Below are positions 59,523-63,230 of a stretch of DNA of 64,000 nt, piece after piece; within the stretch, counting starts at the first letter, position 1, and each line of letters starts with the position of its first letter. Made by a program: the position numbers and the translations under genes. The notes under the pieces were generated by a model that worked only from the letters and a program-made list of their open reading frames with translations, was not told where the DNA came from and did not search any database. Origin of the DNA: Chloroflexota bacterium (lineage in GTDB: Bacteria; Chloroflexota; UBA11872; VXOZ01); NCBI GenBank assembly GCA_965221905.1, contig OZ244922.1:480001-544000 (forward strand), read 5' to 3'.

Positions 59523-60551
59523 TTAGAAGTTGCCGGTTCTGCTTTCGTACTTCGTCGGTTTGCCCAGCGTCGCGCCCTCGTGTTTCGCCCACCAGGCGAC
59601 CCACTCGATGATCTGTGCCGACGGCACGCGGGGTGCGCCGAACGTTTCCACGTAGCGCGTCGCGTCGCCGAGCAGCGCCGTCTCTTCCGGTTCTCCGGTG
59701 AATACCGGCGCCACACCCATGCGCTCGCCCAGAGATTCGGCGACTGCGCGGACGGAAAGCGTATCCGTGCCGGTCAAATTGATCACGTCGGCCGGGCTGG
59801 CGCAGAGCGGGAACGAACGCGCAAGCATGTCGCAGGCGTCGCCCTGCCAGATTTGATTGGCGTAGCCCATTGACAGGTCTATCGGCGTCTGCTCCTTCAC
59901 CTTGGTAGCAATGTCCAGGATAATGCCGTAGCGGAGTTCCGTGGCGTAGAAGAGGCGCACGATGAGCGTGGGCGTACCGTTCTTGGCGGCGTAGTATTCC
60001 ACCAGGCGCTCCCCGCCCAATCGTGATTCCGCGTATTCGCCCACCGGCCCGAGCGGTGCGTCTTCCGCTGCCCCGCTGCCATCAACCGGCATGAACCGGT
60101 ACACGTTGCCGGATGAAACGTAGACCATGCGGGAGGTGGGAAACCGCTCCATGAGTTTGGCCGGAACGAGCGTATTCATCGCCCAGTTGAGGGAGGGCGC
60201 GCCGCTGGAACCGAACTTGAAGCCCGCGAGCAGATAGAGATAGGGCGCATCCGGCAGCTTGGCGACACTCTCGTCATCCAGTAGGTCGCAAGCCACCGTT
60301 TCCACGCCGACTCCATCCAGGTAGCGGCGCGACTCCGGCGAGGAGAAGCGCGACACGCCGATCACGCGTTTGGCGCCGGCGCGCACGAGCAGCTCGGCGA
60401 GCGTGGGCCCCATCTTGCCCGCCACGCCCAGCACCATAATGTCGCCATCCAGCGCTTGGACCGCTTCACACACGGCGGGCGTGGGCTCAGTCATCTGCGC
60501 CATGAGTTCTGCTTCAGTCCGCAACGGCGGCAGCAACGTTTGCTTGCTCAC
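59523..60551 (-). CDS. NAD-dependent epimerase/dehydratase family protein
   Basis: LGVAGKMG, SSGNVY, GEYAESRLGGER, RLFYA. Confidence 0.88.
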   Translation of the reverse strand: MSKQTLLPPLRTEAELMAQMTEPTPAVCEAVQALDGDIMVLGVAGKMGPTLAELLVRAGAKRVIGVSRFSSPESRRYLDGVGVETVACDLLDDESVAKLPDAPYLYLLAGFKFGSSGAPSLNWAMNTLVPAKLMERFPTSRMVYVSSGNVYRFMPVDGSGAAEDAPLGPVGEYAESRLGGERLVEYYAAKNGTPTLIVRLFYATELRYGIILDIATKVKEQTPIDLSMGYANQIWQGDACDMLARSFPLCASPADVINLTGTDTLSVRAVAESLGERMGVAPVFTGEPEETALLGDATRYVETFGAPRVPSAQIIEWVAWWAKHEGATLGKPTKYESRTGNF

Positions 60552-60713
60552 GACATGCTCCTATTAGGCGAAGGAAAGTTTTTCTACAGTATAACGCGGG
60601 CAGCCTAGTCACTACAGTCAGGCGCGATTGTGCAGACGTGCGGTATTGGGGGTGCGGATCAGGCAATGCTACTGAGGCGCCGCAGAGCTTGGGAGTGGAA
60701 AGAAGGGCGCGCC

Positions 60714-61199
60714 TTACTCCTGCTTCAGCGCGTCAACGACCGCCTGCCGATTGGGAAATCCGCCACTGAACCGCAGCCGCACCTCACCCATCCCATCGTA
60801 GACGACAAGGGCGGGCACAAAGCGTAAGTCCAGACGGTCGGCGAATGCGCTCCCGACGGGCGTATGCTGGCTGAGCCGCACGACACGCGCAGCCTCGCCA
60901 AATTCGCGCTCGATCCCATCGACCATGGGGCGGGCCGAAAGGCTGCCCCCTCAGTAGTTGGAGAACACGACTACCAGGACCGGCCGACCCTTGCCGATGA
61001 GCCGATCCAGTGCCGTGATGTTGTCGATGTTCGATTCCCGATAGCGCAGGACCGCCCCTACCGCGACCATAGCAACACTAACGAGCGCCACTAGCGCCAA
61101 GCCGGCGGGCATCGGCAGCCAAAAATAGGCCGCCGCCGCGCTGACAAGGACGGCGAATAGTGCGAGTATGATGTAGGAGTACTGGGTGACGTAATGCAT
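60714..61199 (-). CDS. membrane-anchored thioredoxin-like putative selenoprotein (UxxS; TGA 60953-60951 read as Sec), 161 aa
   Basis: ORFs 60951..61199 and 60714..60926 are in one frame: PVLVVVFSNY*GGSLSARPMVDGIE...FVPALVVYDGMGE; hairpin right after TGA; paralogue with the same TGA at 62017-62015. Confidence 0.8.
60927..60950 (-). promoter_or_regulatory. candidate SECIS hairpin
   Basis: mRNA UGA-GGGGGCAGCC-UUUC-GGCCCGCCCC: GCC/GGC inner stem and GGGGC/GCCCC outer stem. Confidence 0.6.
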
Positions 61200-61444
61200 T
61201 GGACTATTCTCTTCAAGAGTTCTTCACAAAATTGTACAAGAAATTATAGCACACTCTTGCAGTGTCCAATGGGCGGTGACTATTGAGGGAATAATGTACT
61301 TAGCTTGAAACCAAGACAACGGTTTGATGTTGTTTAGCTTTGTGCTCGGCCTCTGTTTGCAACAGCAAGTCCTGATTGTGTTGCTCGCGAGACTTTGAGA
61401 TCGGCGCGGCTCTGGGGCGCGTCAATCCGCTATATGCGTCGGGG

Positions 61445-61768
61445 CTATGAAATTCGTATCGGTGGGTTCTTGCGAAGATAGCACTGTGTGCATAGGGTTG
61501 CCAGGTCTGTTCCAGGCCACTGCTGGGCCAACTCTGTTTGTGTCAAGTGCGCGCCCTCACGCACGGGTCGCCCGCAGTTTGGGGTTGCGCAAATGCGTAG
61601 CTCGATGGAGGTTCTCACGGGCTTGTGGTGCTTAGGGGATATGGGCTTTCGGGTTGTTCTGGTAGCAGGGGGTGTTTGTTGGTGTCCAGAACGGCGTGAA
61701 GCTGCAATTAGAAGCAGAAGCAGTGTTAGGAATAATACAAGAACGACTAGCACTAATAACTCTGACAA
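61445..61768 (-). CDS. small protein with N-terminal TM helix and possible Cys4 zinc finger
   Basis: Hydrophobic N-terminus, CATPNC...CTQC; AAGGAG RBS before the start. Confidence 0.55.
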   Translation of the reverse strand: MSELLVLVVLVLFLTLLLLLIAASRRSGHQQTPPATRTTRKPISPKHHKPVRTSIELRICATPNCGRPVREGAHLTQTELAQQWPGTDLATLCTQCYLRKNPPIRIS

Positions 61769-61802
61769 GTGGCACTCCTTCTCTATTGATGGTCAATCCG
61801 CG

Positions 61803-61940
61803 CTAGATGCTACTTAGGATATTCGCCTTGAGCGTTTCGTATTCGGCCTCAGAGATGAGTTCCTCGTCGAACATGGCTTTTGCCTTAGCCAATCTCTCTA
61901 CAGGATCGCTGGCGGTAGATTCCGCCCCGTTGGCGGGCAT
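61803..61940 (-). pseudogene. SHOCT-domain-like C-terminal remnant
   Basis: DPVERLAKAKAMFDEELISEAEYETLKANIL; nothing recognisable upstream in frame. Confidence 0.6.
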
Positions 61941-61951
61941 GGTGATTTCAG

Positions 61952-62115
61952 TGCTGCCGCGCCAAGGTCGCGTTCGATCCCATCGACGATGGGACGGGCC
62001 ACAAGGCAGCCCGCTCAGAAGTTGGAGTACACAGCTAACAGCACGGGCAGTCCCTTGCCGATCATCGTATCCGGCACCGTGCCGCTAAGTACGAGTACTG
62101 GTTCAAAATCTGCAT
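61952..62115 (-). pseudogene. degraded paralogue of the thioredoxin-like selenoprotein (UxxC)
   Basis: MQILNQYSYLAA, then frameshift/deletion, then MIGKGLPVLLAVYSNF*AGCLVARPIVDGIERDLGAAA; aligns to 60714..61199. Confidence 0.8.
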
Positions 62116-62207
62116 TGCGATTTCCCTGGCACACGTGTTACATGGCTCAATATTGCATGCTGCGGCTAGTCTCGGTGGCCGAGAGACGCTGCGGTGGGCA
62201 GTCTCTT

Positions 62208-63230
62208 CTACGCCTTGTAGCAGGCCACAACCTGGACTTGGCCCTTTTGTTCGAGAGGCGGGTGGTCATTGGTCTCGCAGAATTCATCGGCTTGGGGGCA
62301 GCGCTCGTAAAAGCGGCACTGGGCCGGGGGGTTTACCACCGTAGAAATGCCGCCTTTGATCAAGACCGGCGGGCGCGTAACCGTGGGATCGGGGACCGGC
62401 ACTGCCGAGAGCAGCGCTTTGGTATAGGGGTGCTGCGGGTGCCGCAGTATCGCTTCCGTTTCGCCGATCTCGACTATTTTGCCGAGATACATCACGGCGA
62501 TGCGGCTGCACATGTAGCGTGCCACCGCTAAGTCGTGGGTAATGTAGAGGTAGCTGATACCCAACCGGTCGGCCAACTCTGCCATGAGACGCATAACGCC
62601 GGTTCTCACCGAGACGTCCAGCATCGAGGTCGGCTCGTCAGCAACGACGAAAGAAGGCTCTACCACCAGCGCCCTGGCGATAGCTACCCGCTGCCGTTGA
62701 CCCCCGGAGAGTTCATGGGGGAAACGGAAGAGAAAGGTACGCGGCGGCGTCAGGCCGACGAGTGCGAGCATCTCGGTTACGCGGTCGAGGCGGTCCACCA
62801 GGCTGCCAATCTCTTGCACCTGCAGCGGCTCGGCTATGGTATCGAAAATCGTGCGCCGGGGGTTCATGGATTCGTACGGGTCCTGAAAAATAATCTGCGC
62901 GTGCCTTCTAAAGGCCTTTAGCGGTTTGCCGTGCAGCGTGGCAATGTCCGTGGGCTCGCCCGTGCCGTCGTCAAAGATGACGTGACCGCCGGTGGGGTCC
63001 ACCAGGCGCACCAGCAGTTTGCCGGTGGTGGTCTTGCCGCACCCGGATTCGCCGACCAACCCCAAGCTCTCACCTCTTGCCAGGGTGAAGTTGATGTCGT
63101 CCACCGCATGAATGAAGCGCCGATTGCGCCGAAAGCGGGACGTGGCGGCGGGGAAGTGCTTGCGCAGACCTTCTACCCGAAGCAAGGGGCGGGCATCACT
63201 GGAGGGCGTCGGTTGAGCCGTCTCGCGCAT
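62208..63230 (-). CDS. oligopeptide/dipeptide ABC transporter ATP-binding subunit (OppF/DppF-like)
   Basis: GESGCGKTT, FQDPY, LSGGQRQR, VADEP, HPYTKALL, Cys-rich tail; start ATG 63230. Confidence 0.93.
   Translation of the reverse strand: MRETAQPTPSSDARPLLRVEGLRKHFPAATSRFRRNRRFIHAVDDINFTLARGESLGLVGESGCGKTTTGKLLVRLVDPTGGHVIFDDGTGEPTDIATLHGKPLKAFRRHAQIIFQDPYESMNPRRTIFDTIAEPLQVQEIGSLVDRLDRVTEMLALVGLTPPRTFLFRFPHELSGGQRQRVAIARALVVEPSFVVADEPTSMLDVSVRTGVMRLMAELADRLGISYLYITHDLAVARYMCSRIAVMYLGKIVEIGETEAILRHPQHPYTKALLSAVPVPDPTVTRPPVLIKGGISTVVNPPAQCRFYERCPQADEFCETNDHPPLEQKGQVQVVACYKA

Follow-up and report, generated by a model that had tools for sequence, protein, structure and literature searches.

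The question raised by positions 60714 to 61199 of the Chloroflexota bacterium DNA analyzed here (contig OZ244922.1; the whole 64,000-nucleotide stretch is called the window) is whether two small open reading frames (ORFs) on the minus strand are separate genes or the halves of one. The ORFs, at 60951..61199 (82 amino acids [aa]) and 60714..60926 (70 aa), lie in the same frame, and their sole interruption is a TGA at 60953-60951. Every computational test that was run predicts that the locus is a real selenoprotein gene, with the UGA read as selenocysteine (Sec). Taken as a whole, we consider it highly probable that 60714-61199 is a single gene for a 161-residue, membrane-anchored selenoprotein of the thioredoxin fold, and that the protein would work through a lone selenol.

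The whole gene (60714..61199, minus strand) starts at an ATG at 61199-61197, has the UGA as codon 83 (60951..60953, minus strand), and stops at a TAA at 60716-60714. The 161-residue read-through product starts with M-H-Y-V-T-Q-Y-S-Y, followed by two hydrophobic helices, and then reads ...GKGRPVLVVVFSNY-U-GGS-LSARPMVDGIEREF...FVPALVVYDG.... Around the Sec site this is ...VVVFSNY-U-GGS-LSARPMVDGIE..., with ...FVPALVVYDGMGE... further on. The predicted Sec falls at the first Cys of a thioredoxin CxxC, an invariant column that is Cys in uninterrupted homologues. At the site where relatives have the resolving Cys (TGC) stands an AGC (60942..60944, minus strand), encoding Ser86, which gives the motif U-G-G-S. 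An earlier note on this DNA had described one frame broken by a single TGA at the first-Cys site and a read-through protein free of Cys. The coordinates and the sequence bear out both statements; none of the 161 residues is Cys.

Could the TGA simply be a stop? In that case, the locus would be a pseudogene or would hold two small independent genes, one for a membrane peptide of 82 aa and one for a protein of 70 aa. Public collections do store the halves as two entries, each an unnamed protein of its own (82 and 70 aa), which is the split that the earlier note had expected of standard annotation. TGA is also a normal stop in the source genome. It closes 16 of the 50 window frames of at least 250 codons (TAG closes 22 and TAA 12; window G+C, 59%) and is therefore an ordinary stop in the window, and it is the true stop in 8 of 27 tabulated family genes. 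However, a nonsense mutation would not persist at one codon in 145 distinct sequences, down to ~30% identity, with Cys at that place in uninterrupted homologues. The 70-aa half alone would be an incomplete thioredoxin fold, without strand 1 and the active site, and the covarying hairpin described below would be left unexplained. We regard a real stop as exceedingly improbable.

The conservation of the TGA in homologues carries much of the argument for a single gene. First, full-length matches to the read-through query were found in all 16 other genomes of the genus, at 45-94% identity and with exactly one TGA each, and many of these genomes carry two tandem copies. The one genome available from a second family (1/1) also gave a full-length match, at 38% identity, again with exactly one TGA. 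None of 23 genomes from four further families of the class was matched by this single-protein query at E <= 0.001. A profile scan of 98 genomes of the class at E <= 1e-8 matched 11 of the 80 that belong to these four families, at 36-41 bits, over the thioredoxin domain only and with no internal stop; these short matches span query positions ~27-160 at most, and only one reaches upstream of position 55. The Sec column is invariant in all 27 sequences of the class alignment (A1), as are Y7, S8, P73, P91, V93, D94, G95, G101, G116, P129, and R143. Second, one genome per species was scanned with the peptide pattern A[RKN]P[ITM]VDG[IV]E, from which the Sec codon is excluded, and in all 69 loci found the site is TGA with x-x-C behind it (U-x-x-C). 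These loci are mostly from Chloroflexota/Anaerolineae metagenome-assembled genomes (MAGs), with a few from Acidobacteriota, one from a Planctomycetaceae MAG, and one from a "Methanosarcinales" MAG. Third, marine metagenomes were scanned with a DNA pattern that allowed TGR (TGA or TGG) at the site. In the 80 loci examined, of 104 stretches hit, there were 84 matches, every one with TGA and not TGG, and the family hidden Markov model recognized each of them. Agreement of this extent is well outside what chance would give.

Finally, 1.84 billion representative proteins were searched with the profile, and 7,380 matched at E <= 0.001, 287 of them at E <= 1e-10. Counted per aligned stretch, the best 150 of the 7,380 show CxxC 146 times, WxxC 13, SxxC 5, CxxS 3, and SxxS 1, the CxxC count being inflated by multi-domain thioredoxin-repeat proteins that give several stretches each. 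Many uninterrupted homologues of ~160 aa share the N-terminal motif and the helix pair of the window protein and carry C-x-x-C at the Sec position (for example, P0003, P0004, P0009, and P0016), and split halves of Sec forms are also among the best 150. A further profile search, limited by its word index, gave 2 matches at E <= 1e-10. Thus, the family is widespread in Chloroflexota and marine metagenomes and, as judged from these sequences, occurs in a Sec form (U-x-x-C) and a Cys form (C-x-x-C). Both expectations of the earlier note, that homologues would have Cys or TGA at the site and that conservation would continue past it, were borne out, the first by TGA in 27/27, 69/69, and 84/84 cases and by Cys in the uninterrupted proteins, the second by the full-length matches down to 45% identity in the genus and 38% outside it. 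For annotation, this means that the 82- and 70-aa ORFs should be one selenoprotein and that relatives in many Chloroflexota genomes and marine metagenomes are hit by the same split or by a false Trp.

The false Trp deserves attention, because 13 library stretches show W at the Sec site (including P0012, P0027, P0031, P0039, and P0042), as would be seen if the UGA were read as Trp. An altered code or near-cognate read-through, with Trp, Gly, or Cys at the site, is a further way of explaining an open frame across the TGA. A metagenome scan with a W peptide pattern (W as TGG) returned 20 stretches, with no relative among them. Loci L140 and L214 encode two of the listed "W" proteins, P0039 and P0042, and the codon in both is TGA. 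The W form of 183 aa was called on short contigs (1.0-1.8 kb) and clusters with 83-aa truncations from contigs of up to 215 kb. The 84 of 84 TGA matches and the short-contig origin together indicate an artefact of gene calling with translation table 4. The W forms are Sec forms from low-G+C marine organisms, with 0 TGG among the 84 matches (loci L135-L214). Trp at this position had been named in the earlier note as a finding that would speak against Sec; the W stretches turned out to be TGA in the DNA. Since TGA ends 16 of the 50 long window frames and 8 of the 27 family genes, and the full Sec machinery is present, a reassigned or misread UGA is also very improbable here. False Trp calls made with table 4 are a general trap when "Trp homologues" of candidate selenoproteins are weighed.

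The machinery was found in the source genome, a single contig of 3.52 Mb that is 99.6% complete. The matches to selB (360.7 bits against a cut-off of 242), selA (565.6 against 268), and selD (380.4 against 125, with one in-frame TGA) and the tRNA-Sec, selC (67.1 bits against a gathering score of 47, anticodon TCA, also called as tRNA-SeC by ARAGORN) place all four genes for which the earlier note had proposed a check above the curated cut-offs. The selD gene (G000:C1:1231935-1232864, locus L021) is a selenoprotein gene itself, with the motif A-G-U-A-G-K. Its hairpin, CGCGCAG-GUU-CUGCGCG, has 7 bp and a GUU triloop, begins 27 nt past the UGA, and has its G-U at +37/+38. This is the same design as that of the family hairpin, with a spacing two codons longer.

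The family hairpin resembles a selenocysteine insertion sequence (SECIS). With the U of UGA numbered 1, the window copy, CCCAU-GGUCG-AUGGG (60915..60929, minus strand), occupies positions 25-39, places G31 and U32 in the apical loop, and encodes P-M-V-D-G. Its stem (60929-60925 paired with 60919-60915; loop GGUCG; -7.1 kcal/mol) is present in the minimum free energy fold. Across the family, the hairpin sits 21 nt past the UGA at a fixed spacing, with a stem of 5-8 bp. It is not the hairpin of the earlier note, which was GC-rich and started right after the TGA. Pairing directly after the TGA is found in the genus only, because the genus codons are G+C-rich; folding of that stretch does not exceed shuffles (z -0.12), and the pairing is unconserved beyond the genus, the family consensus (alifold) retaining two G-C pairs there, from a Cys and an Ala codon. 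The conserved hairpin lies 21 nt further on.

Two kinds of evidence indicate that this conserved hairpin is under selection as RNA. One is the freezing of synonymous sites. The alifold consensus of 80 distinct DNA sequences (the first two sets) is C25-C-C-A-U-C30 / G31-U32-N33 / G34-A-U-G-G-G39, and in the stem Pro is CCC in 80/80 sequences, Asp is GAU in 78/80, and Gly is GGG in 79/80. The third base of the loop Val is free (G 45, C 29, and U 6), and synonymous sites past the stem vary (position 42, C 57, U 11, A 10, and G 2; position 45, A 41 and G 38). The other is covariation. Both sequences with G28 in the 80-sequence set carry C36, and marine forms, which encode P-x-V-D-[RQGE] and not P-I-V-D-G, have compensatory changes that preserve the helix. 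In a test of helix 23-30 with 34-41 on 145 distinct pooled sequences, with 500 shuffles and slid-partner controls, 85.9% of cells were paired compared to 76.8 ± 0.5 in the shuffles (0/500 reached the observed value) and 23-43% with a slid partner. Cells changed on both sides numbered 125, compared to 38.7 ± 4.6 (again 0/500) and 12-26, respectively. A good example is pair 27-37 (CG 86, UA 42, GC 13, and other 4), which joins a synonymous Pro-codon site to the first base of the codon after Asp, a coupling that protein selection cannot create. Pair 28-36 is AU 100, GC 37, GU 2, and other 6, and pair 25-39 is CG 138 and UA 5, in the same 145 sequences. The family thereby offers a natural SECIS data set of 145 distinct sequences in which the spacing is fixed at 21 nt, the loop carries G-U, and covariation at three stem pairs runs against the protein code. 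The RNA element would also shape the peptide: Sec forms have P-I-V-D-G or P-A-V-D-R, whereas Cys forms vary freely there.

What kind of protein is encoded? AlphaFold2, run on a 27-sequence alignment (pLDDT 78, pTM 0.66), predicted two helices followed by beta-alpha-beta-alpha-beta-beta-alpha. Membrane helix 1 (residues 8-27; 61119..61178, minus strand) follows the conserved Q-Y-S-Y, of which Y7 and S8 are invariant and which belongs to an N-terminal motif, NQYS[YF], conserved in the family; membrane helix 2 covers residues 30-54 (61038..61112, minus strand). Both are supported by AlphaFold2 and by hydrophobicity, and each of 27 genus-level relatives scanned for hydrophobicity showed two transmembrane (TM) segments, in agreement with the earlier note, which had placed two TM helices upstream of the domain. 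The thioredoxin-fold domain (residues 61-158; 60726..61019, minus strand) has residue 83 at the start of helix 84-100 and the invariant Pro129 in a predicted cis-Pro loop (60813-60815). In Foldseek searches against the PDB, thioredoxins were on top: 346 matches had E <= 0.001, the top thioredoxins had TM scores of 0.74-0.84 on target, and 2puk_C matched at E 4.4e-7 with a TM score of 0.78 on target and a root mean square deviation of 2.2 Å over 102 columns. The thioredoxin-like protein with a cis-Pro strand that the earlier note had seen is therefore well matched by the AlphaFold2 and Foldseek fold and by the invariant Pro129, the cis state itself being a prediction.

Family models reach this protein less well than its relatives. 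PF00085 was passed by 10 of 10 relatives tested, at 24.9-53 bits, and PF13098 by 2 of 10 (31.6 and 35.8 bits), the other 8 failing; PF13905 gave sub-threshold matches only among the relatives tested. No NCBIfam model scored above its cut-off for the window protein or 8 relatives, the thioredoxin equivalogs reaching at most 21 bits compared to cut-offs of 97-138. As long as the family is without a curated model, annotation pipelines will keep truncating its genes.

The most unusual feature of the window protein is its Ser86. Most relatives have two redox residues at the helix start, C/U-x-x-C, and the window protein, with U-G-G-S, does not. As a motif, the UxxS of the earlier note is true of the window protein, but it is not the family norm, which is U-x-x-C in the 69/69 distant genome loci and in all marine forms. 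In the DNA alignment of 80 sequences, column 10 is U in 71 and A in 9. Within the genus, 13 sequences have UAGC or UGGC and 13 have UGGS, UASS, UAKS, UARS, UVGS, or UTVS, and the outgroup has ULAC; all 13 UxxS proteins are free of Cys. In a midpoint-rooted maximum-likelihood tree of 31 rows, in which 4 Anaerolineae forms served as outgroup to the 27, the C/S label has to change at least 3 times. Most of the Ser codons are AGC, and a single one is TCC. The window protein falls in a clade of 10 UxxS sequences (support 98/95) with internal branches of up to 0.36, all of which retain the TGA and an open frame. These comparisons identify U-x-x-S as a derived state of a U-x-x-C family.

A derived state may also be a decaying one. 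The gene could be a true selenoprotein gene of which the U-G-G-S copy is functionless or on its way out, the U-x-x-C copies doing the real work. The prevalence of U-x-x-C in distant and marine forms would fit this explanation, and paralogue loss in the genus is irregular: G001, G004, and G006 have a UAGC copy only, and the UARS copy of G002 is frameshifted. Nevertheless, the clade of 10 spans species with branches to 0.36 while keeping frame and TGA, with a hairpin that is weakened but kept, and the Ser state involves at least 3 label changes and two codons, AGC and TCC. CxxS also occurs among the Cys homologues (3 stretches among the best 150 of 7,380). Moreover, it is the other copy that decayed in the source genome and in the two genomes closest to it, G005 and G003, with UGGS intact. 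In the window, a remnant of a tandem U-A-G-C paralogue was found at 61952-62086 (minus strand), 135 nt corresponding to residues ~60-104, with its TGA at 62017-62015. The remnant keeps an intact hairpin (CCCAUC-GUC-GAUGGG) and has unrelated sequence on both sides. In further species of the genus, the U-A-G-C copy is whole and in tandem; in G005 it is likewise reduced to a remnant, and in G003 the sister copy has extra stops. An intact UxxS clade beside a decayed UxxC copy argues for UxxS as a maintained state and not a fresh lesion, and we consider a functionless U-G-G-S copy unlikely. UxxC and UxxS paralogues in one genus, lost in different species, amount to a natural experiment on the resolving Cys at a selenol site.

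We therefore return to a working selenoprotein with a lone selenol, for which the following mechanism may be proposed. SelB-GTP-Sec-tRNA(Sec) would bind the hairpin and insert Sec. The ancestral U-x-x-C proteins would have been membrane-tethered thiol/disulfide oxidoreductases cycling via an internal Se-S bond. In the window lineage, the resolving Cys would have changed to Ser (TGC to AGC), with no Cys elsewhere in the protein. A single selenol without Cys would form a mixed Se-S (or Se-OH) intermediate with its substrate, and an outside thiol, either soluble thioredoxin or a low-molecular-weight thiol, would resolve it. This would be a "monothiol"-type mechanism performed by selenium. A Sec-dependent redox protein lacking a resolving Cys had been put forward in the earlier note, and the Sec machinery, the TGA/Cys column, the U-G-G-S motif, and the zero Cys count are all consistent with it. 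More tentatively, and with the odds rather against it, the Cys-free U-x-x-S clade may represent a distinct type of single-selenol, membrane-tethered enzyme within an uncatalogued, abundant family linked to selenium handling. If so, the clade might, for instance, reduce peroxides or sulfenates or carry selenium or sulfur species at the membrane, with recycling by an external thiol, and the family would be an uncatalogued selenoprotein family of Chloroflexota and marine bacteria in which the SECIS dictates P-[IVA]-V-D-[GRQ].

Several points weigh against the reading preferred here. The assignment of Sec to residue 83 is a computational prediction. A hint of expression, which counts in favor of the reading, comes from contigs X17 (60660-61212) and X19 (60717-61275) of the metatranscriptome libraries of one study, which hold the whole gene with the TGA unchanged and little else, but each differs from the window by ~2% and comes from a near relative, and contigs in RNA libraries are no proof of transcription or of Sec insertion; a third RNA run, X20, covers 60776-60941 only and stops short of the TGA. 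As to the hairpin, the window copy has a Met codon that gives G30, which makes the sixth pair G.G and leaves a stem of only 5 bp. In 6 UA[SKR]S members of its clade, a Thr ACG disrupts pair 29-35 (C29.A35) and leaves 4 contiguous pairs. Single-sequence folding of 67 nt around and after each TGA was no better than that of shuffles (z -0.12 and -0.66). The patterns used to collect the two wide locus sets prescribe V-D (GTN GAY), which in itself accounts for part of the constancy of G31, U32, G34, and A35 (only the 27 class-scan sequences are free of this bias), and the covariation counts overstate independent events because related sequences are counted. The window protein scores under the cut-offs of Pfam PF00085 (11.8 compared to 23.5 bits) and of PF13098, its best Pfam match (18.6 compared to 27 bits). 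The topology signals from Lys and Arg residues are contradictory: in the genus, their mean number is 1.78 after helix 2 versus 0.19 in the inter-helix loop, and in the wider family the loop has 1.9-2.7 versus 0.3 at the N terminus and 0.8-1.5 after helix 2. By the loop residues of the wider family, the domain would lie outside the cell. Finally, no neighbor gene is conserved family-wide that would point to a substrate, and the monoselenol mechanism stays at the level of inference.

The general kind of protein is known. Sec-containing Trx (PF00085, UxxC) is listed among the experimentally verified prokaryotic selenoproteins (PMC13188914, Table 1; PMC9312934), and the tables of the same two reviews give as predicted families thiol:disulfide interchange proteins (PF13098, UxxC) and thiol-disulfide isomerase-like proteins (cd02966/PF13905, UxxC), and they also list GOS_C and a redoxin family (UxxC) (PMC13188914, PMC9312934). 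Like Sec Trx, the window family has a thioredoxin fold with Sec at the first CxxC position, Cys homologues, and a SECIS in the coding region past the UGA, and its distant members pass PF00085 at 25-53 bits. Unlike Sec Trx, it has the NQYS motif and a two-helix anchor, and in the window protein both the resolving Cys (its motif being UGGS) and the customary W-C-G-P-C surroundings are missing. With the PF13098/PF13905 selenoproteins it shares UxxC, a thioredoxin-like domain, and a cell-envelope association, PF13098 being the best Pfam match of the window protein. The JGI label of the Cys and "W" forms is "thiol-disulfide isomerase/thioredoxin." It differs from these selenoproteins in the PF13098 score of the window protein and the PF13905 scores of relatives, all below cut-off, a separation made by model scores.

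Among membrane-tethered thioredoxin domains, the family is similar to ResA, TlpA, CcmG/DsbE, and the C-terminal domain of DsbD. Proteins of this type have one N-terminal anchor or a signal peptide and not a two-helix hairpin, and we know of none with Sec plus an NQYS-type N-terminal motif. Relatives give weak NCBIfam matches to DsbD, DsbE, ResA, and TlpA, far under the cut-offs (for DsbD, 25 compared to 330 bits). Two UxxS families, ArsC and AhpC/TSA-like, are catalogued in the tables of the two reviews (PMC13188914, PMC9312934). They share with the window protein a Sec followed by Ser at +3, the lack of a resolving Cys, and a thioredoxin-type fold, and by analogy they may be taken as precedent for a lone selenol as the working form. 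However, no ArsC or AhpC/TSA match was found with Pfam or NCBIfam, and the UxxS state here is derived within a UxxC family. The words "transmembrane" and "Chloroflex" are absent from the available text of both reviews (PMC13188914, PMC9312934), and no paper on a membrane-anchored Sec thioredoxin surfaced in a literature search, in which survey supplementary lists were not covered. It may be that the marine U-x-x-C forms have been tallied before as part of some general Trx-like category. What is new, therefore, is not the Sec thioredoxin fold as such but the membrane-anchored architecture, the lack of a curated model, and the Cys-free U-x-x-S lineage.

The gene neighborhood differs between the genus and the rest of the family. 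A gene for an NAD-dependent epimerase (59523-60551 in the window) lies downstream in 18 of 20 genus loci and is absent from 54 distant and 80 marine loci, so this is genus synteny only. The 54 distant genome loci have as neighbors a metalloenzyme-superfamily gene (30 loci), AMMECR1 (18), trxB (9), and trxA (11), and in L063, L064, L066, L069, L075, L078, and others the gene stands directly behind trxB and trxA. In the 80 marine loci, just one of these neighbors was seen, once. A TPMT/TehB-like S-adenosylmethionine methyltransferase (TPMT, 50.5 bits compared to a cut-off of 26) is present in 20 of the 54 distant, Anaerolineae-type loci. Its start overlaps the stop of the Sec-thioredoxin gene via ATGA, and the metalloenzyme-superfamily and AMMECR1 genes come next. 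This overlap was seen in L080, L082, L083, L088, L095, L096, L099, L102, L104, and L106-L116 (for example, L099:3486-4058). The TPMT/TehB family is annotated for selenium and tellurium methylation, and the overlap hints at a link to the handling of selenium itself.

Two other ORFs lie near the gene on the minus strand of the window. The ORF at 61445-61768 (107 aa), between the selenoprotein gene and the remnant paralogue, has a hydrophobic N terminus, a C-x-x-x-x-C, and a C-x-x-C, and it matched no Pfam family at E <= 0.001. The ORF at 61803-61940 (45 aa) has a SHOCT domain (PF09851, 27.5 bits compared to a cut-off of 27) and abuts the remnant; it may be part of the rearrangement that destroyed the U-A-G-C copy. 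A search of 60600-62300 against Rfam at E <= 10 gave a chance snoRNA match only, and the hairpin matched no Rfam family.

Among the wider relatives, marine contigs L151, L186, L190, and L196 carry two tandem Sec copies (for example, L151:9882 and L151:10486), and in the second of these a long low-complexity N terminus rich in Asn, Ser, and Glu replaces the membrane helices. Five proteins (P0067, P0076, P0081, P0118, and P0113) have Ser at the Sec/Cys site as read from the library, with S-x-x-C or, in one case, S-x-x-S; the Ser codon TCA is one change from TGA.

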